Below are positions 3,501-57,077 of a stretch of DNA of 64,000 bases, one piece after another. A program made the translations under genes and the position numbers. Every line of letters starts with the position of its first letter. The first letter of the stretch is position 1. The notes under the pieces were generated by a model. It saw only the letters and a list, made by a program, of their open reading frames with translations, was not told where the DNA came from and made no database searches. The DNA is from a virus (Duplodnaviria; Caudoviricetes): the IMG/VR virus record IMGVR_UViG_3300005611_000002, positions 130,646 to 194,645 of that record, one strand, 5' to 3'.

Positions 3501-5993
3501 GGGTCTATTTTGAGCATATGCTTCTTCGGGCGTAAGAGCTGGAACTCCGGGTACAAAAATTTCTGCAATCTTAAGTTGGTCACCAGTTACACTCGATGGT
3601 ACTGAATTTTCTGATTCTTGACCCTTTACGATAGCGGTTCTTCCGTAAGAGTCAATAGTGACAATGTCAGTTCTATTCAGATAAAACTCGTAATCGAGTT
3701 GACCAAATGTATCGTGAGCTGGTGTTAGGACTGTGTTGTTTGCATCAAACGAAGGCGCAATACTCACACTCGTGCTTGAAGAACTGACTGTTGGCGCTGT
3801 CCCTTCTGAAGCAGCATTAGTATATGTGGCACCAGCGATTGGTTCAACAAGTGGTCTAAAATCTACACAATCTCGAAGATTATAAGTAGCACCAGAAGGT
3901 GATACGAAAGGTTGTATTTTGTTCGTTGCTACTTGTCCAGAACCAGTACCGATTGGATAACTGTCAATTGTAAAGAAATAATCTCCAGTTGTGTCATTCA
4001 ATTTGAATGCATTCATCTGAACTGTCATATCACCATCAGAAGGAACAGGGCGACCTGGGATAAACTCGATGTACGAATGGTCGTAGTAATTATTTTTCTG
4101 GTTAGTTCTTAATTTGAAACTTGTTGTGACGTCGTTGTTAGCAGCATCAGTAATCGAAACTACTTCATAGACATCTGGAAAGCCTAGATTGAATTTCGAT
4201 GATGAAGTAGAATCAGTATTCGCGAATGTACATTTCACATATAGTTCAACTGATGTTTTAGTAAATGGAGTTGCGTCTGAAATTCTTTTATTCACGTAAA
4301 CTGTTGCCGTAGCAGAAGTCGTACCAGCAAGTTCTATTTGAAGATCATTGTTAGCGCCAGATAATGAAGTACTTAATACATCAATTTTTTGATTGGAAGA
4401 GTCGACAAACAAAATGTCATCATTGTTTACATTAAAATCTTCTCCAACCGCAGAAGAAATGATTACTGTATTTCCTGAAAGACCGGTCAATTCTCTTTTT
4501 TCACGAACCGGAAGCGAAATACTATCGGTTGACTTGAGACTAACGGCTCCTGTATCAAAAATCATGGAGCCGTTACTTGCTTCATTTAAAACTGAACCAC
4601 TTGCGACAGAAATAACACCCGACGACCCAATGATTTGCTCTACGCCAGAAATTTCATTAGATCCATCTAGACGAATATCGAACAAGAAAATCTTATCATC
4701 AGTAATATTTCGAACTCTTGCAGTACCGGTATTAGCAGACGCACCATTTTGAAGTGTAACTGTCGAAAGAGTATCAATCGGAACAACACCAGTATTTGCA
4801 ATATCAAGAATGTTCAGATAACCGCCGTAATTGAATGAAACTGCTTGATTTGATCTTTCATCAACTGACGTATTTGCAATTGGATCAATATCAAGAAGAA
4901 CTTCAGCAAGATTTTCTACTCGATAACCTTTCACATATGCAATACCACTTCCAACGGAAGCTTTCAGAATATCGTCTCTTCGTATGACCTTTGTTTTAAA
5001 GTCACGCACAATATAGTCACCAGACTCTTCAAATGTGCGGCGAGCCATTTCTTCACCCAGTGCATTATATTGTGATACGTCTCTTAGAAAAACGGCGCTG
5101 CCATTTGAATATCTTGTAAGCGTAAAGAATGTAGTATCAGCATCTGCGTCTAAAGTTGGTAGCGCAGTTAATACTGGAATCAACTTCAAGCGATCTGCGC
5201 CTGGAGCGTTTTCATTTGTGGATCCATTTGCGTTATCAAAAAGCGATGGGTCTTGAAGAGAACTAATCAACCTTTCTTCTACGACGTAACCAATTGAAAC
5301 TCCATCTGGAACATTAGTATATTTTGAAACAACTACCAACTGTTCTTCAGTGAAAAGGAAATGTCCTTTTTGAAAGATAATACCAGGGGCAGCACGAAGA
5401 CCAAACGAATTACCAACTGGGTTTGGAAAATTAGTTACGGAAATAGTAGTTTCAAGTGTCTCAGTCACATTGGTTGTAGTTCCAATGTCATAAGAACTAA
5501 TTTTATAAATTTCAAGAGTTTCACCACCCTGAAATACCTTATTTCCGGCAGACGTTGAAGTGTAGTCGATGTAAAAAGTGTTGAGATCTGGATCTCGCGT
5601 TTCAAAGCCCCGTGTCGCTGCGATCACTTGCGCACGAACTCCACTCACAAGGCCTCTTAGTTCATATACGTTGTTTCTTTCATATATTTGACCGCCATCA
5701 GAAACAGTATCTGTAGAACCAACATAAACAGCTGGATCAAAACCGCCTTCATTTGTAACTTTGACGTACTTGAGATCAGAAAGTTCGGTGAAGGTACAAC
5801 CCTTGATGATTGAACCCTCTTTGTAAATATTGTCTCCAAACTGTTCAATCTGATTCTGCAGAACAGTTTGAAGTTGAGTCAATTCTCGAGCTTGAACCGC
5901 ATACGAAGGCTTGAATAGAACTCTGTAATACTGGTTTTCGAGATCAAAATCATCGAAATAAGGCGCGGTACTAAGATTCGTATTAATTGGCAT
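576..5993 (-). CDS. Large virion structural protein, VrlC/DUF4815-like
   Basis: N-terminal PYFDDFD...YYRVLFKP..AVQARELTQLQ and APGADRLK motifs typical of this T4-like family; follows gp8. Confidence 0.8.
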   Translation of the reverse strand: MPINTNLSTAPYFDDFDLENQYYRVLFKPSYAVQARELTQLQTVLQNQIEQFGDNIYKEGSIIKGCTFTELSDLKYVKVTNEGGFDPAVYVGSTDTVSDGGQIYERNNVYELRGLVSGVRAQVIAATRGFETRDPDLNTFYIDYTSTSAGNKVFQGGETLEIYKISSYDIGTTTNVTETLETTISVTNFPNPVGNSFGLRAAPGIIFQKGHFLFTEEQLVVVSKYTNVPDGVSIGYVVEERLISSLQDPSLFDNANGSTNENAPGADRLKLIPVLTALPTLDADADTTFFTLTRYSNGSAVFLRDVSQYNALGEEMARRTFEESGDYIVRDFKTKVIRRDDILKASVGSGIAYVKGYRVENLAEVLLDIDPIANTSVDERSNQAVSFNYGGYLNILDIANTGVVPIDTLSTVTLQNGASANTGTARVRNITDDKIFLFDIRLDGSNEISGVEQIIGSSGVISVASGSVLNEASNGSMIFDTGAVSLKSTDSISLPVREKRELTGLSGNTVIISSAVGEDFNVNNDDILFVDSSNQKIDVLSTSLSGANNDLQIELAGTTSATATVYVNKRISDATPFTKTSVELYVKCTFANTDSTSSSKFNLGFPDVYEVVSITDAANNDVTTSFKLRTNQKNNYYDHSYIEFIPGRPVPSDGDMTVQMNAFKLNDTTGDYFFTIDSYPIGTGSGQVATNKIQPFVSPSGATYNLRDCVDFRPLVEPIAGATYTNAASEGTAPTVSSSSTSVSIAPSFDANNTVLTPAHDTFGQLDYEFYLNRTDIVTIDSYGRTAIVKGQESENSVPSSVTGDQLKIAEIFVPGVPALTPEEAYAQNRPAYGVKVTTKGTKAYKMRDIEKIDRKVDALKYYVLLTALEIETTNLNILDENGLSRFKNGIIVDPFNDLNIANVESADFNAAIDFAEKSLMPAVKSFPINMKYKSNSSGTIFPSTADARAATLSRDQDVSIINQPYATEFRNCVSNFYSYRGVGSLDPEYDALYDVTTNPVSIDIDLVTPLSQFADAINEVVPLTATSREVLNSRLTGRNRRQDGNQITTTTTFTDTVRETFNTLQVSGEQISETPVGDFVSNINFNPFMAPREVNVYMSGLRPNTRHYFFFDEVDVNQFVAPGDDVDSAAEVHRNGNFGDPITSNENGVITAVFDIPAETFFVGDRKLEIVDVDAYNTIASASTSYGSVTYRAYNFSIERSSLTASTRQPTNFIEQITSERNVTRRITTIEQREERWEEDGGDPLAQTFFIKQGMGRGSDTVFASKIDLYFKRKSSTYGVTVEIREVLNGYPSYQNVPFSRVHLTPSEVSISDDASAVTTITFPAPVRLDVEKEYAVVVIPDAANPDYLIFTSKVGGTDLTPGDNQGRSIVQDWGDGVLFTSTNNRAWQSYQDEDIKFNLYRHNFNVSSGTVTLTNNDHEFITTENNIGRFKTGEVVYTIHPSDSNTSNTVSISPGNNEITGTNLSTTYATDDYILVDDGASNKQLFKVVSANSSVIVADRPASFSANAAGNPVTIGTLRHYDFRYPNFMILEGSSATASRKFEASDTIYGFDSSSVATITSMDNIEFSYIQPMIMRTNDSVTSTSLSGTFVDPNNTTNTYTQLMQFNDKTTFGKTGMTVFSKSNDIARTKTMDLTVSLANASNVTSTPFIDIETSSVLAYQWKITNSSDTTAKYISRTVELAENLDAEDFQIFVTGYRPNGTDIKVYIRPQAANDPEVFDVNNWVELELTQGINTYSSISNIYDFREFVYRVPDSAKTAGVLNYTNDLGSFSGYRRFAIKIELLSENIFKAPRLLDYRGIALT

Positions 5994-51774: not shown

Positions 51775-52181
51775 CATGTAGTACTTTTGACTTGTTGCAC
51801 GCGGGTCACATTCAAATGTTACGTGAAGCTAAATCGCATTGTGATTATTTGATTGTCGCATTACAGGTTGATCCGAGTGATGATCGCCCAGAAAAGAATG
51901 CTCCAGTACAGACTTTGGTAGAAAGATATGTACAACTCTCGGCAGTTAAATATGTTGATGAAATCGTCACATATCAGAACGAAAGAGACTTGGAAGATAT
52001 TCTTGAGATGTTTCCAATTGATATGCGCATTCTTGGTGAAGAGTACAGAGACAAAGACTTTACTGGTCGCGAAATATGCAAGCGCCGTGGTATCCAGCTG
52101 TATTTCAACAAGCGAGATCATCGGTTTTCAAGTAGCGGACTGAGAAAAAGAGTATCCGAAATAAATAAGAATGTACAATAA
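51732..52181 (+). CDS. Cytidylyltransferase (TagD/RfaE-like)
   Basis: FDLLHAGH, ER......KYVDE, R...SSS..R. Confidence 0.88.
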   Translation: MGRNMGTSKKIVGLTCSTFDLLHAGHIQMLREAKSHCDYLIVALQVDPSDDRPEKNAPVQTLVERYVQLSAVKYVDEIVTYQNERDLEDILEMFPIDMRILGEEYRDKDFTGREICKRRGIQLYFNKRDHRFSSSGLRKRVSEINKNVQ

Positions 52182-52193
52182 AAGGAACACACC

Positions 52194-52628
52194 ATGGATA
52201 AAGAACAACTCATATCACAGATGAAGGTGATCCTCGCATCTTCATTCTCATTCTATCTCAAAGCACACAACTATCACTGGAATGTTACCGGTCCGAACTT
52301 TGCTCAATATCACACTTTCTTTGGTGATCTCTACACAGAAGTATGGGAATCACTTGATACCACTGCAGAGGAAATTCGCAAGCTAGGATCTTTTGCTCCA
52401 GGTTCACTCTCAAGATATTCAGAAATCACACGTATCGAAGATGAGTTGAACATTCCAGATGCTTCAGTCATGTTCGGAAGACTCGCAGCAGACAATGACA
52501 AACTGCTGGAACTTCTCTACCGCGCTCGAGCAACTGCAGATGAAGTCGATGCTGCGGGTACTCTTGACTATCTCGAAGCTCGCATTGGTATCCATGAAAA
52601 ATACGCCTGGATGCTAAAAAGTTTCTAA
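52194..52628 (+). CDS. dps: Dps-family ferritin-like protein
   Basis: HNYHWNV.G..F...H..F...Y, D..AE.IR, HEK..WML. Confidence 0.93.
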   Translation: MDKEQLISQMKVILASSFSFYLKAHNYHWNVTGPNFAQYHTFFGDLYTEVWESLDTTAEEIRKLGSFAPGSLSRYSEITRIEDELNIPDASVMFGRLAADNDKLLELLYRARATADEVDAAGTLDYLEARIGIHEKYAWMLKSF

Positions 52629-52698
52629 AAAGTGAAAAAAGATGTTGACATTCACGAAAAGTGATATAAATATATACCTATACAACAAAGGAATAACC

Positions 52699-52785
52699 AT
52701 GACTAACCCCATTATGAAAAGCATTTATACCATTTGTGCATATAAGCATGAACGCTTTGTGCTGCTGGAGGGCTATGGTGGTTAA
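52699..52785 (+). CDS. Putative attenuator leader peptide (28 aa)
   Basis: AAAGGA RBS; MTNPIMKSIYTICAYKHERFVLLEGYGG; contains CTGGAGGG complementary to the terminator 5' arm. Confidence 0.65.
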   Translation: MTNPIMKSIYTICAYKHERFVLLEGYGG

Positions 52786-52810
52786 CTAGTTTAGTAAGTT
52801 AACGAGTTCC

Positions 52811-52845
52811 AAACCCTCCAGGCGAAAGTCTCGGAGGGTTTTTTA
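52811..52845 (+). terminator. Intrinsic terminator (attenuator)
   Basis: AAACCCTCC-loop-GGAGGGTTT followed by a T run. Confidence 0.85.
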
Positions 52846-52849
52846 TTGG

Positions 52850-52878
52850 TTGACAAACGGTCCGAATCAGTATAATAT
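52850..52878 (+). promoter_or_regulatory. Sigma70-type promoter with GAATC in the spacer, upstream of tRNA array
   Basis: TTGACA-aacggtccGAATCagta-TAATAT. Confidence 0.75.
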
Positions 52879-52904
52879 CAAAATATAAGGAATGAAAATT
52901 CCAC

Positions 52905-52916
52905 GCTCTTTGAAAA
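52905..52916 (+). promoter_or_regulatory. boxA-like antitermination element
   Basis: GCTCTTTGAAAA shortly after the promoter, matching the rrn boxA pattern. Confidence 0.55.
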
Positions 52917-52961
52917 TTTATGTTTGTCTTAGGCAAAAGCCGATAATAGACTGGAAATAGA

Positions 52962-53118
52962 AAATTCTGTTTTCACATGCACTATATGCTGGTGTAATAC
53001 GATCGGTTCGAATCCGGAGGAAGGTATAGGCACGAGAAGACTGGTTCGACTCCAGTTGAAAGCCGGGGTGGTAAATGAAGGTTCGATTCCTTCGGTAGTG
53101 CAGCTGAAAACAGAGTTT
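52962..53118 (+). ncRNA. Structured RNA with three T-loop hairpins
   Basis: Closing stems CTGTTTTCA/TGAAAACAG and TGCACTA/TAGTGCA enclose three GG-TTCGANT-CC hairpins. Confidence 0.65.
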
Positions 53119-53158
53119 GGCGAGGTATGCAAGCGGTCGAAGCAGATTTGAAATCTGG
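53119..53158 (+). pseudogene. Truncated tRNA-like 5' fragment (Ser UGA-like)
   Basis: D-arm-like TGC-AAGCGGTCGAA-GCA and CAGA-TTTGAAA-TCTG, no T arm or acceptor 3' strand. Confidence 0.4.
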
Positions 53159-53195
53159 TTTATTATAAATACCTTTATAAAAAGGAGTATTAATA

Positions 53196-53621
53196 ATGAA
53201 GCAGAAACACGATCAAATCTCGGATAATCAAATTATAGAATGCTTTAATAAACATAAACATATAGGTAAAATATCTCATGAATTGAACTTGCCTCATATA
53301 AGTGTCTGGAGACGATTAAAAAAACTTGGGTTAAAAACGGAAAAATCTGGGTCTGGTAAAAAAATAGAATTGGAAGAAATATTAGATGGAAAACATCCAT
53401 ATTATCAAACGTTTAAACTAAAAAATCGAATACTTAAAGAAGGTTTATTTGAATATAAATGTGTTAGTTGCAACAATGAAGAATGGATGGGAAATAAAAT
53501 TCCTCTACAATTAGACCATATTAACGGAGATTCTTCTGATCATAGAAAAGATAATTTGAGATTACTTTGTCCAAATTGTCACAGCCAAACAGATACTTGG
53601 TGTGGTAAAAACAAAAAATGA
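53196..53621 (+). CDS. HNH endonuclease
   Basis: C..C, LQLDHING...D....NLRLLCPNCH; TATAAATA at 53164. Confidence 0.9.
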   Translation: MKQKHDQISDNQIIECFNKHKHIGKISHELNLPHISVWRRLKKLGLKTEKSGSGKKIELEEILDGKHPYYQTFKLKNRILKEGLFEYKCVSCNNEEWMGNKIPLQLDHINGDSSDHRKDNLRLLCPNCHSQTDTWCGKNKK

Positions 53622-53709
53622 GGGGATACGGCGAAGTTGGAGAGTCGCGGCAGTCTGTAAAACTGTTCCTGAAAAGGTGAGTTGGTTCGAATCCATCCCA
53701 CTCCCACCA
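53622..53709 (+). tRNA. tRNA-Tyr(GUA), imperfect acceptor stem
   Basis: D stem GCGA/TCGC, anticodon arm GCAGT-CTGTAAA-ACTGT, long variable arm, TTCGAAT, CCA end. Confidence 0.65.
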
Positions 53710-53715
53710 AAACAA

Positions 53716-53790
53716 GGTGCTATAGTTCAGCGGTAGAACACACGGCTCATATCCGTCATGTCAGAGGTTCAAATCCTCTTAGCACCACCA
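53716..53790 (+). tRNA. tRNA-Met or Ile2 (CAU)
   Basis: GGTGCTA/TAGCACC acceptor, CTCATAT loop, CCA. Confidence 0.88.
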
Positions 53791-53791
53791 T

Positions 53792-53869
53792 GTCCCCATG
53801 GTCTAGCGGTCTAGGACGCTCCCCTTTCAAGGGAGAGGGCGCTCGGTTCAAATCCGGCTGGGGATACCA
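53792..53869 (+). tRNA. tRNA-Glu(UUC)
   Basis: GTCCCCA/TGGGGAT acceptor, CTCCC-CTTTCAA-GGGAG, CCA. Confidence 0.85.
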
Positions 53870-53877
53870 AAAATAAC

Positions 53878-53953
53878 GCAACTGTGGTGAGGCTGGTGCT
53901 CACGCCTGGTTGAAGCCCAGGAGACGAATGTTCAATTCATTCCGGTTGCACCA
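53878..53953 (+). tRNA. tRNA-Phe(GAA)
   Basis: GCAACTG/CGGTTGC acceptor, CCTGG-TTGAAGC-CCAGG, CCA. Confidence 0.85.
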
Positions 53954-53968
53954 TATAAAGGAAAGCTT

Positions 53969-54154
53969 ATGCAGAATGATTTAAAACTAATCGCTAGAAA
54001 GCTAAAAGAAGCACGAAAGCTTCCTGAAAACAATCCAACCGAGTATAATCATAAGCAAATGATACTTAATCACTGGAAGCTTGAGAGATACATGCTCATG
54101 AAAGCGATTGAACAAGAGATCAGAACACGTGAATATTTTGCAAATAATAGTTGA
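53969..54154 (+). CDS. Hypothetical protein inside tRNA array
   Basis: 61-aa ORF with AAGGA RBS. Confidence 0.55.
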   Translation: MQNDLKLIARKLKEARKLPENNPTEYNHKQMILNHWKLERYMLMKAIEQEIRTREYFANNS

Positions 54155-54179
54155 CATTCATTTAGAATCAGTATAGATT
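54151..54179 (+). promoter_or_regulatory. Sigma70-type promoter with GAATC in the spacer
   Basis: TTGACA-ttcatttaGAATCagta-TAGATT. Confidence 0.65.
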
Positions 54180-54202
54180 GATAATATATAAAGGAGATGC
54201 AA

Positions 54203-54346
54203 ATGAAACGAAAACCTAAGATACTCAAACCAAGAAATCCTGACCTGGTTGCAGCAATGTTTCGTAAGGCAGGTGCTCATGGTAAGAGCAGAAAAGCTGA
54301 ACGTAGAGCAGCTAAAGTTTCTCTACTAAAAACAGTGGACCCGTAG
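54203..54346 (+). CDS. Small basic protein (47 aa), stop codon inside tRNA-Lys
   Basis: Read by hand: MKRKPKILKPRNPDLVAAMFRKAGAHGKSRKAERRAAKVSLLKTVDP; AAGGAG RBS. Confidence 0.7.
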   Translation: MKRKPKILKPRNPDLVAAMFRKAGAHGKSRKAERRAAKVSLLKTVDP

Positions 54347-54410
54347 CTGAGTGGTGTAGCAGGAGACTTTTAATCTCTAGACGGGAGTTCGATTCTCCTC
54401 GGGTTCACCA
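54337..54410 (+). tRNA. tRNA-Lys(UUU)
   Basis: GGACCCG/CGGGTTC acceptor, GGAGA-CTTTTAA-TCTCT, CCA. Confidence 0.88.
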
Positions 54411-54517
54411 TTACTTTGATGATACACTGTCTTGGTTTGGCTTTGGTCTAGTCCCGATAGCAAAGCCCCAGATCAAGTCCAACGGGTAAAGACTTGCAGT
54501 GTATCTTCTAAGTAATG
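54411..54517 (+). ncRNA. Structured RNA, three-way junction with potential kissing loops
   Basis: GATACACTG/CAGTGTATC encloses GGCTTTG/CAAAGCC and CAAGTC/GACTTG hairpins; loops carry CCCG and CGGG. Confidence 0.55.
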
Positions 54518-54521
54518 AATA

Positions 54522-54588
54522 TCCCGTGACTGGTGGTGCGCAGACTGCAGCTGTGCTGAAGACGGTTCAATTCCGTAACACGGGGCCA
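54522..54588 (+). pseudogene. Degenerate tRNA-like element (GCA anticodon, reduced D arm)
   Basis: CCCGTG/CACGGG acceptor, ACGG-TTCAATT-CCGT T arm, CCA end, only 67 nt. Confidence 0.45.
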
Positions 54589-54597
54589 AAATAGAAT

Positions 54598-54748
54598 AGG
54601 CAGCGGCAACTGCCTTGACTGAGAGACTACTCCTCTACGTTTTGCCGAATGTAGGTTGCGGTAGATTGCTTCGTCTAGTGGATAGGACGCCCTGCGCATC
54701 CACGGGGAGACACGGGTTCGATTCCTGTAGCAACATTGCTCTCAGTCA
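54598..54748 (+). ncRNA. Structured RNA containing an embedded tRNA-like domain
   Basis: TGACTGAGAG/CTCTCAGTCA 10-bp stem encloses D arm, T arm and acceptor-like stem; upstream hairpin loop CGGCAA complementary to TTGCCG. Confidence 0.55.
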
Positions 54749-54756
54749 GAAATTAC

Positions 54757-54830
54757 TGTCCTATAGCTCAACGGTAGAGTGAACGACTGATAATCGTTAG
54801 ATGGAAGTTCGATTCTTCCTAGGACAACCA
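54757..54830 (+). tRNA. tRNA-Ile(GAU)
   Basis: TGTCCTA/TAGGACA acceptor, AACGA-CTGATAA-TCGTT, CCA. Confidence 0.87.
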
Positions 54831-54839
54831 AAATAAAAT

Positions 54840-54921
54840 GGTGTGGTGACGGAACGGTAACGTGCTGGATTGCAAATCCAAGGCCTGAAAAGAGTGAGTT
54901 CGACTCTCACCCACACTTCCA
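54840..54921 (+). tRNA. tRNA-Cys(GCA) with enlarged variable region
   Basis: GGTGTGG/CCACACT acceptor, U discriminator, TGGA-TTGCAAA-TCCA, CCA. Confidence 0.8.
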
Positions 54922-54923
54922 AT

Positions 54924-54995
54924 GGCCCCATAGATTATGGGTTAGATCACTGCCCTTTCAAGGCGGAGAATCGGGTTCGAGTCCCGGTGGGGCTA
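54924..54995 (+). tRNA. tRNA-Glu(UUC), second copy, no encoded CCA
   Basis: GGCCCCA/TGGGGCT acceptor, CTGCC-CTTTCAA-GGCGG, TTCGAGT. Confidence 0.82.
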
Positions 54996-55053
54996 CATAG
55001 AGAACATGAAATGTATAAATAGTACTGAAGAGGTAAAACTATAGGTACATTTC

Positions 55054-55671
55054 ATGTTCTACACAATTTATAAAATAACTAATAAGATCAACGGCAAAAT
55101 CTACATTGGTAAACATCAGACCAAAGACCTAAATGATGGATATATGGGCTCAGGTAAACTCATAATAGCAGCTATTGAAAAATATGGAATTGATAATTTT
55201 GAAAAAGAAATTCTCTTTCAATTCGATAGTGAAACTGATATGGACACCAAAGAAGCTGAACTGGTAACTGACGAATTTGTGAAAGAAGATACCAACTATA
55301 ATCTTTGCCCTGGCGGTAAAGGTGGTTGGGGGTATATCAACTCTAATGATTTATCGCCAAGATTTGCAAACTATGTAGGCACTAAAAAGTACAAAGAATG
55401 GTCAGCAAAGGGTGGCAAAAAAACAGGAAGAGTGAATATCACTAATGCCCATTTAGAAGGTAAAATAAGATATGATACCTTTACTGGTAAAACACATAGT
55501 GATGAAACCAAAAGAAAAATATCCGAAGCAAACTCTAAAATAACTGGTTCTAAAAACTCTCAATATGGTACTATGTGGATTACTAATGGTAAAGAGAATA
55601 AAAAAATAAAAAAAGATGTCGATAGTATACCAGAAGGATGGTATAAAGGTAGAAAAATAATGCTTCCGTAG
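55054..55671 (+). CDS. Seg-like GIY-YIG homing endonuclease with NUMOD3
   Basis: TIYKITN.INGKIYIGKH, YMGSG, YNL..GG.GG, GKTHSDETKRKIS; TATAAATA at 55014. Confidence 0.92.
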   Translation: MFYTIYKITNKINGKIYIGKHQTKDLNDGYMGSGKLIIAAIEKYGIDNFEKEILFQFDSETDMDTKEAELVTDEFVKEDTNYNLCPGGKGGWGYINSNDLSPRFANYVGTKKYKEWSAKGGKKTGRVNITNAHLEGKIRYDTFTGKTHSDETKRKISEANSKITGSKNSQYGTMWITNGKENKKIKKDVDSIPEGWYKGRKIMLP

Positions 55672-55738
55672 CTCAACTGAATAGAGCATCTGGCTACGAA
55701 CCAGAAGGTTAGGGGTTTGAGTCCTCTCGGAAGTTCCA
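55662..55738 (+). tRNA. tRNA-Arg(ACG)
   Basis: GCTTCCG/CGGAAGT acceptor, TCTGG-CTACGAA-CCAGA, CCA. Confidence 0.88.
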
Positions 55739-55810
55739 AAAAATGTAAAATAGTGGTTGACATACATAAAAAATATGTTAGATTTAATCTATGATGTGAA
55801 CGAAGTGAAT

Positions 55811-55871
55811 TGGATGAATTCAGCAACTCAAAAACGCTATAATTTATGGTCTTAGCGGACAAAATCATCCA
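55811..55871 (+). ncRNA. Short Y-RNA-like element (stem + CAGCAA motif)
   Basis: TGGATGA-ATTCAGCAA...AAAA-TCATCCA with an internal CGCTA/TAGCG hairpin; same frame as 56362-56488. Confidence 0.5.
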
Positions 55872-55883
55872 GAAAGGAATAAC

Positions 55884-56207
55884 ATGACTTGGAACCTTTT
55901 TATTGACGATGAACGTTTTCCACCAAATGATGGTAAGGACTGGGTTATTGCCAGAGACGGTTCTCGAGTATTAAAAGAGTTTTTAGACCGTGGAATGCCA
56001 AGCTATATTAGCTTCGACCACGACCTAGGACCGGAAAGCGGTACTGGCTATGACATTGCTAAACTTCTTGTAGATATTGATATGAGAACTACAGAAGAAC
56101 AATATCGCTTTCCACAAGATTTTGACTTCTATGTACATAGTCAGAATCCTATAGGTAAGAAAAACATCGAGTCTTACCTTAAAAACTATCTTGTACAAAA
56201 AACATGA
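55884..56207 (+). CDS. Cyclic-phosphate-processing receiver-like (divergent REC) domain protein
   Basis: LFIDDER, ISFDHDLG, TGYD, VHSQNP.G motifs. Confidence 0.75.
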   Translation: MTWNLFIDDERFPPNDGKDWVIARDGSRVLKEFLDRGMPSYISFDHDLGPESGTGYDIAKLLVDIDMRTTEEQYRFPQDFDFYVHSQNPIGKKNIESYLKNYLVQKT

Positions 56208-56333
56208 AACCTTGGTTGGTTTCAGCCCAGCAATCATGAAGTCTGTTCTCTCTGTAGAAGACCTTGAAGACTTCACTCCGTTCAATGTGATGGTGAAAAC
56301 CCTCATGAATGAGCGTTACGATTACTAATCGGT

Positions 56334-56349
56334 TAGGCCTTCGGGCCTA
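56334..56349 (+). other. cUUCGg hairpin
   Basis: TAGGCC-TTCG-GGCCTA; lacks a clear T run, so a processing/stabilising hairpin or weak terminator. Confidence 0.5.
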
Positions 56350-56361
56350 GCCTCCAATCTT

Positions 56362-56488
56362 TGGATCATTACAGCAACAAAACAGCTATGCATGAGAAGC
56401 ACGTGTTTGTGGTGTTCGAGTCCCACCGCCCCGACCATGACGGGGTGTAGGCAAATGGTAAAGCCGCGTAAAGCAAAAAGTTGATCCA
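56362..56488 (+). ncRNA. YrlA-like RNA with a circularly permuted tRNA domain
   Basis: TGGATCA/TGATCCA closing stem; order T arm, acceptor 3' strand + ACCA, acceptor 5' strand, D arm. Confidence 0.65.
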
Positions 56489-56510
56489 GTTAAACATTAT
56501 GAGGAGTGAC

Positions 56511-57077
56511 ATGAAAGCAAAACTTAAGTTCATTTATTCATCCATGAACAGCGGAAAGAGCTTGTCACTCCTCTCTAAAAACTTTATGCTAAGAGAAAAA
56601 GGGTTTCATACTGTCCTTATGAAACCGGCTATCGACAGTCGAAGCAACGATTCTATTACTACGCGTCTCGGTATAAGTGATCCTTGTATCGTATTGGAAT
56701 CAAAGGATAATCCCGAAAAAATCATAAAAGAAAAGTATACTCATCGGATAGACTACATTCTAGTTGATGAAGCGCAGTTTCTCACGAAGGAGCAGGTCTG
56801 GAACCTAGCATATCTTGTAGACTATTCTAACATAAACGTTCGTTGCTACGGTCTAAAACTAGATTGGCAGGGTGAGTTCTTTACTGGTTCTGAAGAGCTC
56901 ATGAAAATCGCAGATGAGCTGGAACCAATCGAAAACTACTGTCGTCACAACAAGGGTGCTCGAGCATTTTTTCATATGAAGCTCGGTGGTTCTCAAGAGA
57001 GTGTAGAAATCGGTGAAGAAGACTTATACGAGTCCGTATCTCGTAAAAAATGGAAAGAATGGTATGACAAAAATTGA
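56511..57077 (+). CDS. tk: Thymidine kinase
   Basis: MNSGKS, KP.ID.R, VDEAQFL, YGL..D..G..F.GS motifs; GAGGAG RBS before ATG 56511. Confidence 0.93.
   Translation: MKAKLKFIYSSMNSGKSLSLLSKNFMLREKGFHTVLMKPAIDSRSNDSITTRLGISDPCIVLESKDNPEKIIKEKYTHRIDYILVDEAQFLTKEQVWNLAYLVDYSNINVRCYGLKLDWQGEFFTGSEELMKIADELEPIENYCRHNKGARAFFHMKLGGSQESVEIGEEDLYESVSRKKWKEWYDKN

Follow-up and report, generated by a model that had tools for sequence, protein, structure and literature searches.

The genome examined here is that of a distant T4-like phage, recovered as a single 194.6-kb contig and encoding a gp43 with 45% identity to that of cyanomyophage S-PM2. It harbors an island of 27 tRNA genes and a tmRNA, which spans the contig end. 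At the head of this island, approximately 1 kb 5' of its beginning, lies a compact module in which a short ORF is followed by an intrinsic terminator, raising the question of whether translation of the ORF governs transcription into the island and, if so, what the ORF would be reading. The question bears on a broader one, namely why large phages carry tRNA genes and when they express them; recent work has connected phage tRNAs with the codon supply of the host and with defense systems that cleave tRNAs. A first-pass annotation of the window (the whole 64,000-nt stretch of DNA analyzed here) had interpreted the module as a leader-peptide attenuator that may sense general tRNA shortage, an interpretation that is partly supported by the analysis presented below.

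Parts of the element and their predicted folding

The ribosome-binding site (RBS), 28-codon ORF, terminator and downstream promoter described in the first-pass annotation are all present in the window, as is a promoter 5' of the ORF (Table 1). Translation of 52699-52785 yields the peptide MTNPIMKSIYTICAYKHERFVLLEGYGG, which bears out the earlier count of 17 of the 20 amino acids, with D, Q and W missing, and which contains no regulatory codon runs. Likewise, segment A is the exact reverse complement of the 8-nt CCCTCCAG at 52814-52821, within the terminator 5' arm, as had been reported. The two helices that share this arm are both predicted to be stable, with folding energies of -23.5 kcal/mol (z = -3.15) for the antiterminator hairpin and -19.1 kcal/mol (z = -5.04) for the terminator alone. 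When the window transcript is cut just 5' of the terminator 3' arm, its minimum-energy fold is the antiterminator hairpin.

Table 1. Features of the element in the window, given in window coordinates.
Feature	Position	Strand	Basis or placement
P1 -35-like hexamer, TTGACA	52645..52650	+	read from sequence
TATAAATA, candidate late promoter or alternative P1 -10	52665..52672	+	34 nt 5' of leader ATG
Ribosome-binding site, AAGGAA	52688..52693	+	5 nt before ATG 52699; AGGA core 52689-92, 6 nt before
Leader ORF, 28 codons and TAA	52699..52785	+	ATG 52699, TAA 52783-85
Segment A, CTGGAGGG, antiterminator 5' strand	52765..52772	+	within codons 23-25, 10 nt before stop
Apical hairpin H, GGTTAAC ... GTTAACG	52780..52804	+	stop codon within its 5' strand
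Full antiterminator hairpin (A and terminator 5' arm, with H as cap)	52765..52821	+	folding
Intrinsic terminator: 13-pair GC-rich stem, GAAA loop, U-run TTTTTT	52811..52845	+	hairpin 52811-41
P2, predicted sigma70-like promoter (TTGACA-17-TAATAT) for the stable RNA and tRNA island	52850..52878	+	promoter scan

Both candidate promoters have recognizable sequence signatures. A P1-type TTGACA or TTTACA is seen at a comparable distance in most relatives. The 194.6-kb genome contains 54 copies of the octamer TATAAATA, which we take to be the late-promoter consensus of the T4 type, as compared with 8-20 copies of control motifs of the same composition; 34 of the 54 copies have an ORF of at least 80 aa starting no more than 80 nt downstream, and the motif is found 5' of the leader in 13 of 20 related loci. 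P2 matches 10 of 12 consensus positions and starts 5 nt past the U-run. A GGAGG in the region was considered as the Shine-Dalgarno sequence of a downstream mini-ORF and rejected, given that the corresponding start codon (ATG 52775 in the window) is absent in L001, L066 and other relatives. An Rfam cmscan of 52000-57000, with E-values up to 1, returned only tRNAs and chance-level matches, with no T-box and no leader family among them.

The module belongs to a family known from metagenomic phages

In order to be compared across phages, the module was traced in metagenomic viral contigs by four routes: the neighboring Dps gene, the conserved downstream RNAs, the pattern of the terminator loop and a two-arm terminator pattern. 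Twenty loci were parsed in detail and 10 further ones were obtained with a pattern specifying the terminator arms only, bringing the set to 30 loci. Exact-pattern scans with the terminator or the leader of the window matched only the contig of L001, the nearest relative, whose terminator is identical to that of the window. Scans anchored on a 16-mer of the RNA produced mostly chance matches, which were filtered by BLAST. Among cultured phages, blastn and megablast searches with the modules of the window, L170 and L151 matched nothing but an HNH gene, and the clade is known only from metagenomes.

A shared plan is apparent in approximately 30 loci, consisting of a promoter, an RBS, an ATG-initiated ORF of 19-40 codons, a gap and an intrinsic terminator. 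The distance from stop codon to terminator is confined to 24-31 nt in the 30 loci, and in all 20 of those parsed in detail this gap accommodates a small hairpin; the sequences of the apical hairpin and of the loops are not conserved among loci. An AAGGA, TAGGA or GAGG motif lies 3-15 nt 5' of the ATG in 20/20 loci, the start of the ORF in relatives having been chosen with an RBS requirement. Predicted terminator energies range from -13 to -21 kcal/mol. Those of the antiterminators lie between -15 and -27 kcal/mol in the 20 loci parsed in detail and between -15 and -28 kcal/mol in the full set of 30, with the single exception of L304 at -9.8 kcal/mol. The terminator helix is well supported by its alignment across 28 loci, in which 93% of cells are paired and the covariation score is 0.364, against 0.144 for shuffled alignments (0 of 500 as high).

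The downstream gene differs among members of the family. A protein-coding gene, not a tRNA, follows the leader-terminator module in L261 (5572-5700), L066 (1812-1900) and L264, and the switch may thus not be restricted to tRNA genes.

The end of the ORF is complementary to the terminator arm across the family

Judged on the window alone, the pairing between the ORF tail and the terminator arm has an energy that beats 95.6% of shuffles (4.4% reach it), and the case against chance is modest and borderline. It is the relatives that settle the matter. Conservation of the pairing in related phages had been put forward as a check on the original claim, and in 20/20 loci the last 33 nt of the ORF do pair with the terminator 5' arm, with energies of -10 to -23 kcal/mol. 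In each of the 20, moreover, this pairing is stronger than that of every upstream window of the same ORF, the best of which attain -3.5 to -9.5 kcal/mol, and the minimum-energy fold of a transcript cut before the 3' arm binds the 5' arm to the ORF tail.

The specificity of the pairing was assessed against two backgrounds. Cognate partners average -16.0 kcal/mol, versus -13.0 +/- 0.5 for non-cognate combinations, and 0 of 1825 permutations (derangements) were as low. As a negative control, 102 viral terminators that are unrelated but share this arm sequence were examined; their median upstream complement was -6.2 kcal/mol, versus -13.3 kcal/mol in the family (Mann-Whitney P = 4e-10). The complementarity also persists where the sequences change. 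The base 3' of GAGGG tracks the base 5' of CCCTC, with U facing A in most loci and, when read in register, with compensatory changes to C facing G in L176, L184 and L173, and to G facing C in L170, L174 and L187; in the re-anchored alignment the counts for this first flanking pair are U-A 17, G-C 3 and C-G 2. In L160 the terminator is unrelated (AACCCAAGAT...), and the end of the ORF is a perfect 12-nt complement of its arm and flank. In L070 the complementary segment is read in another frame (GTG AGG GTT), so the pairing is not merely a Glu-Gly codon pair.

Over the whole antiterminator helix, counted in gapless columns, covariation is modest: the score is 0.144, versus 0.096 for shuffled alignments, of which 1 in 500 scored as high. 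In these columns 70% of cells are paired, in a re-anchored alignment that ignores bulges and therefore under-counts antiterminator pairs. The score nonetheless exceeds that of every slid register. A MAFFT alignment of the whole 3' region split the A segments into different columns and was unusable for pair counts.

The position of the pairing relative to the stop codon is compatible with masking by a terminating ribosome, with a footprint size assumed from the literature. In the window, 10 nt separate the 3' end of the 8-bp core of A from the stop, and across loci the extended pairing ends anywhere from 13 nt before the stop to inside the stop codon. An upstream protector or pause helix (1:2) was sought and not found; upstream ORF windows pair with the arm weakly, and A pairs with the terminator arm in all 20 truncated folds. 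The geometry of an attenuator that the first-pass annotation had recognized (an ORF, an antiterminator made by its tail, a terminator and a fixed spacing) is thus kept in approximately 30 loci, with compensatory changes.

The ORF is kept open while its peptide changes

The leader ORF of L001 is homologous to that of the window and differs from it by an in-frame 3-nt indel. Between the two there are 2 synonymous and 12 non-synonymous codon changes, and between L170 and L174 there are 0 and 9, respectively; close leader pairs present no third-position bias. In the peptide alignment, where the mean column identity is 30%, nothing recurs but a Trp, one aromatic position and 'EG', whose codons supply segment A. 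As judged from these comparisons, the peptides evolve without purifying selection while the ORF stays open, which is the signature expected of a leader whose translation, not its product, matters.

Leaders of the main clade are unusually rich in different amino acids

What these peptides do retain, in much of the family, is their diversity. Leaders of the main clade hold 18-20 different amino acids within 29-40 residues. All 20 are present in 8 of the 20 loci, which represent five lineages (L066; L151/L161/L177; L169; L171/L179; L176) and have leaders of 34-38 residues, and a sixth such lineage, L261 (40 residues), was added by a later scan. Nineteen are found in L070 (31 residues), L168, L172, L174, L187 and, from the later scan, L248, and 18 in L173, L184 and L170. 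Proteome windows, by comparison, contain 14-15.5 +/- 1.8 distinct amino acids, and reach all 20 with P of about 0.7-2 x 10^-3. For 15 representatives with a median pairwise identity of 28%, Fisher's test returns 5 x 10^-14, a value to be read with the provisos that the null model is the proteome of this genome and that the loci are related rather than independent. Only 0.2% of the non-genic small ORFs of the genome contain all 20 amino acids. In simulations of neutral nucleotide drift from an all-20 leader to 45% identity, all 20 were kept in 0.3-1.3% of cases and at least 19 in 6-11%; since drift seldom keeps the full set, the property appears to be maintained, and not just inherited.

The excess, furthermore, is located where a sensor would need it. 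Stall-sensitive codons, at which an A-site stall leaves segment A uncovered, have a mean z of +2.2, as compared with -0.4, and hence no excess, in the masked tail. In L066 the stall-sensitive zone spans 28 codons and contains all 20 amino acids, and in L161, L176 and L177 it contains 19 within 26 codons.

The window copy is a relaxed, shorter member of the family. Its 17 distinct amino acids in 28 residues are slightly more than expected from windows of its own proteome (P = 0.04), and it falls in a lower-diversity class together with L001 (13/29), L175 (16/31) and L160 (14/26), as well as L258, L264, L236, L282 and L215, with 14-15 amino acids. The proposal of a sensor of general tRNA shortage therefore fares differently in the two groups: it gains from the relatives in which 18-20 amino acids are concentrated in stall-sensitive codons, but not from the window's own sensing zone, which is not significantly diverse (12 amino acids in 17 codons, z = 0.8), nor from the leader of L001, with 13 of the 20 amino acids. 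On these comparisons, the case for a signal of any tRNA shortage is a plausible one in the all-20 clade and a weaker one in the window copy.

A more specific correspondence, between the leader and the tRNAs downstream of it, does not hold up. The leader had been described as including every amino acid served by the downstream tRNAs, and this is true only for the 8 tRNAs that lie within the window. The 27 tRNAs of the island include Asp, Gln and Trp, the very amino acids missing from the leader, and phage tRNAs can read 20 of the 28 leader codons, versus 74% of codons genome-wide, which represents no enrichment. The idea that the leader mirrors the phage tRNAs was consequently rejected for this genome.

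Downstream promoters and directly gated genes

The first-pass annotation had cautioned that a separate promoter at 52850 lies downstream of the terminator. This caveat is correct: P2 is a good consensus match, and it is specific to the sub-lineage of the window. Because P2 follows the terminator, the tRNA island of the window does not depend on read-through, and the module could there be a remnant. A promoter directly 3' of the terminator is otherwise present in L001 and L160, and a TTGACA lies within 45 nt of the terminator in L258 and L236. In 16 of the 30 loci, on the other hand, a tRNA or tRNA-like gene begins 7-17 nt past the terminator, leaving no room for a promoter. The gene behind the terminator is usually a divergent species with a CAU anticodon, and in L170, L174 and L187 it is a tRNA-Cys. 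High-diversity leaders precede 15 of these 16 promoter-less genes. The distribution fits relaxed selection on the leader once the terminator is no longer the sole gate of a gene, in cases that are few and phylogenetically linked.

The CAU species has some properties of its own. It is a tRNA-like element with a CTCATAA anticodon loop (L151:6822-6900, L168:2329-2396), with equivalents in L169, L172, L173, L176 and L184. ARAGORN reports it as tRNA-Met in some loci only. Against the Rfam tRNA model it reaches 29.2 bits in L168, and in L151 it goes undetected by this model; it may be an elongator Met tRNA, an Ile2 tRNA or a decoy tRNA. The window has no such element between its terminator and P2.

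Several other features were noted in and around the island. ARAGORN identifies a permuted tmRNA with tag ANTNAAPKALALAA outside the window, at G000:C1:12767-13233 and within the tRNA island; from this prediction, the island would also carry a ribosome-rescue RNA. In the window, an HNH endonuclease ORF (53196-53621) is flanked by two tRNA-like pieces, namely a 5' half at 53117-53157, which has its homologue in the first part of a type-II tRNA that is intact in L001 (~4935-5005), and a Tyr(GUA)-like stretch at 53622-53708 (Rfam tRNA-Sec, 23 bits, E = 0.33). A homing endonuclease may have disrupted or replaced a tRNA gene in this stretch (53117-53708); at the HNH gene, ARAGORN run with introns gave no convincing split-tRNA model. 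In L182 (1-450), a GIY-YIG-like endonuclease gene sits directly 5' of P2, in the usual place of the leader module, an arrangement that suggests remodeling of this region by homing endonucleases. Two small RNA motifs were also observed 3' of P2. In the window, a short GGAAT-GAAA-ATTCC hairpin (52890-52903) is followed by a conserved CGCTCTTTGAAAATTTA-like motif (52906-52925), which recurs in L070, L222 and L248. Most relatives present a conserved hairpin with the motif CGAAGAGATnnTATCAATC (L151:6955-6973, L170:1873-1891, L172:1718-1736, L173:5536-5554 and others).

Proposed mechanism

That the attenuator architecture is functional in the family appears very likely. For the element itself we favor, as a somewhat probable reading, a ribosome-mediated (leader-peptide) transcription attenuator that heads the tRNA island and senses overall decoding capacity. 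Sequence and comparison establish the parts and their conservation, the covariation of the two alternative helices, an ORF that is maintained while its peptide is not, and the excess diversity of leaders in relatives; that the leader is translated, which way the switch works and what physiological signal it answers to are inferred. Transcripts from P1 (TTGACA and TATAAATA), which is probably active both early and late, would encode the 28-codon leader. The 5' strand of the antiterminator would be provided by the last leader codons (A) and the stop codon, and its 3' strand by the terminator 5' arm. With prompt translation, a ribosome at or near the stop codon would cover or melt A, the terminator would fold and the P1 transcript would end at 52845. 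With a ribosome delayed in roughly the first 17 codons, or never loaded, A would pair with the arm and transcription would read through into the stable-RNA and tRNA island. Since no protector helix was found, absence of translation should, unlike in trp, also give read-through, and since an untranslated transcript would read through, the terminator would be useful only if transcription and translation are tightly coupled.

Lacking a run of any single codon, and with up to 20 amino acids in relatives, the leader would report a severe shortage of whichever aminoacyl-tRNA is limiting, and not the supply of one amino acid. Having a single codon for each amino acid, as opposed to the tandem codons of classical attenuators, implies low sensitivity, such that only severe depletion would be sensed. 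In the window, read-through would only add to the output of P2, and P1 may supply late, conditional transcription of the island atop early transcription from P2. A more ambitious version, which we put forward tentatively and hold to be possible rather than probable, is that of a 'pangram' sensor, in which selection keeps every amino acid approximately once and loss of any aminoacyl-tRNA opens the tRNA/tmRNA island. Host anticodon nucleases, degraded host translation machinery or starvation are possible causes of such a loss, and the element would then constitute a feedback loop giving replacement tRNAs on demand.

Alternative explanations

The same switch and leader might instead read transcription-translation coupling or ribosome availability, and not tRNA or amino-acid supply, responding to signals such as late-infection ribosome competition or host shut-off, with amino-acid diversity as a side effect or serving another purpose. 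We regard this as rather unlikely, even though several observations are in line with it: tandem regulatory codons are missing, the predicted ribosome-free default fold is the antiterminator, P1 carries the late-promoter motif TATAAATA, leader codons do not mirror the phage tRNA set, and diversity is ordinary in the window, L001, L160, L258, L264, L236, L282 and L215. A coupling sensor, however, needs no amino-acid diversity, and the main clade holds 18-20 amino acids in the stall-sensitive zone despite fast peptide turnover; the directly controlled gene, besides, is a tRNA in most relatives.

Explanations that dispense with the switch or with the leader fare worse against the comparative data. 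The ORF could be a small phage gene of the ordinary kind, equipped with a promoter and with a terminator insulating it from the tRNA promoter, and the complement a by-product of Glu-Gly (GAG GGN) near a GGAGGG-type terminator. T4-like genomes are rich in small early ORFs, the pairing in the window alone is marginally significant, P2 comes directly after the terminator and 'EG' recurs near the C-terminus. The small-gene account is nevertheless improbable, for the peptide is without purifying selection, L070 pairs in a different frame and L160 through an unrelated sequence, flanking pairs change in a compensatory manner, the complement is missing from unrelated terminators that have identical arms, and a promoter-less tRNA or tRNA-like gene behind the terminator in 16/30 loci means that simple insulation does not apply there. 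An RNA-only switch, in which the ORF is untranslated and the fold is set by a protein, by a small molecule or, as in a T-box, by an uncharged tRNA, would agree with the two alternative helices being the best-conserved features and with tRNA genes being the output. It is the least credible of the three, and indeed very improbable: Rfam models of T-boxes and other leader families yield no match at E-values up to 1, the apical hairpin and loops are not conserved in sequence and offer no obvious ligand pocket, and translation is implied by the RBS, ATG and open frame of approximately 30 loci, by the in-frame indel that distinguishes the window from L001, and by selection on amino-acid content.

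Comparison with known attenuation systems

Classical leader-peptide attenuators include the enterobacterial trpL, hisL, leuL and pheL leaders and the multivalent thrL and ilvGMEDA/ilvBN leaders. The attenuator proposed here shares with them a short leader ORF, predicted to be translated, an intrinsic terminator and a mutually exclusive antiterminator that uses the terminator 5' arm, as well as a putative logic in which the antiterminator strand is masked once a ribosome reaches the stop codon, an upstream stall leading instead to read-through. It departs from them in having no tandem cognate codons, with up to 20 amino acids appearing about once each, in lacking the 1:2 protector or pause helix of the trp type and, in the window only, in being followed by a promoter. 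Its output also differs, consisting of phage tRNA and stable-RNA genes instead of biosynthetic enzymes, and there is no similarity in sequence or to Rfam models. Classical attenuators have been treated by modeling (PMC1183508).

Likenesses to other translation-linked switches are more partial. The antibiotic-responsive attenuators of Firmicutes, found by term-seq, regulate resistance genes and react to ribosomes that have bound a drug, in many cases at particular peptide motifs; as proposed here, their leader ORFs sense a general slowdown of elongation instead of a single amino acid and turn a terminator off, but the phage leaders have no conserved arrest motif and a tRNA output. The pyrBI attenuator of E. 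coli reads the coupling between RNA polymerase and the leading ribosome, which disrupts the terminator, so that translation gives read-through. Physical polymerase-ribosome coupling would be an input here as well, yet translation of the phage leader should favor termination. T-box riboswitches (RF00230) are untranslated, bind tRNA directly and have conserved specifier and T-box motifs; they resemble the proposed element in being a transcription antitermination device that answers to tRNA status, and differ from it in that no Rfam match is obtained here and an ORF is maintained.

Full-text searches of the published literature turned up no account of phage tRNA genes controlled through a leader peptide, and none of a leader containing all 20 amino acids. 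Were the proposal correct, a conserved translation-coupled switch ahead of phage tRNAs would mean that phages gauge decoding capacity and adjust tRNA supply accordingly. The element is short (about 200 nt) and makes clear mutational predictions. In relation to the known systems, the all-20 leaders would then represent the first natural attenuator built for any amino acid rather than for one, and a compact, ready-made reporter of global aminoacyl-tRNA availability.
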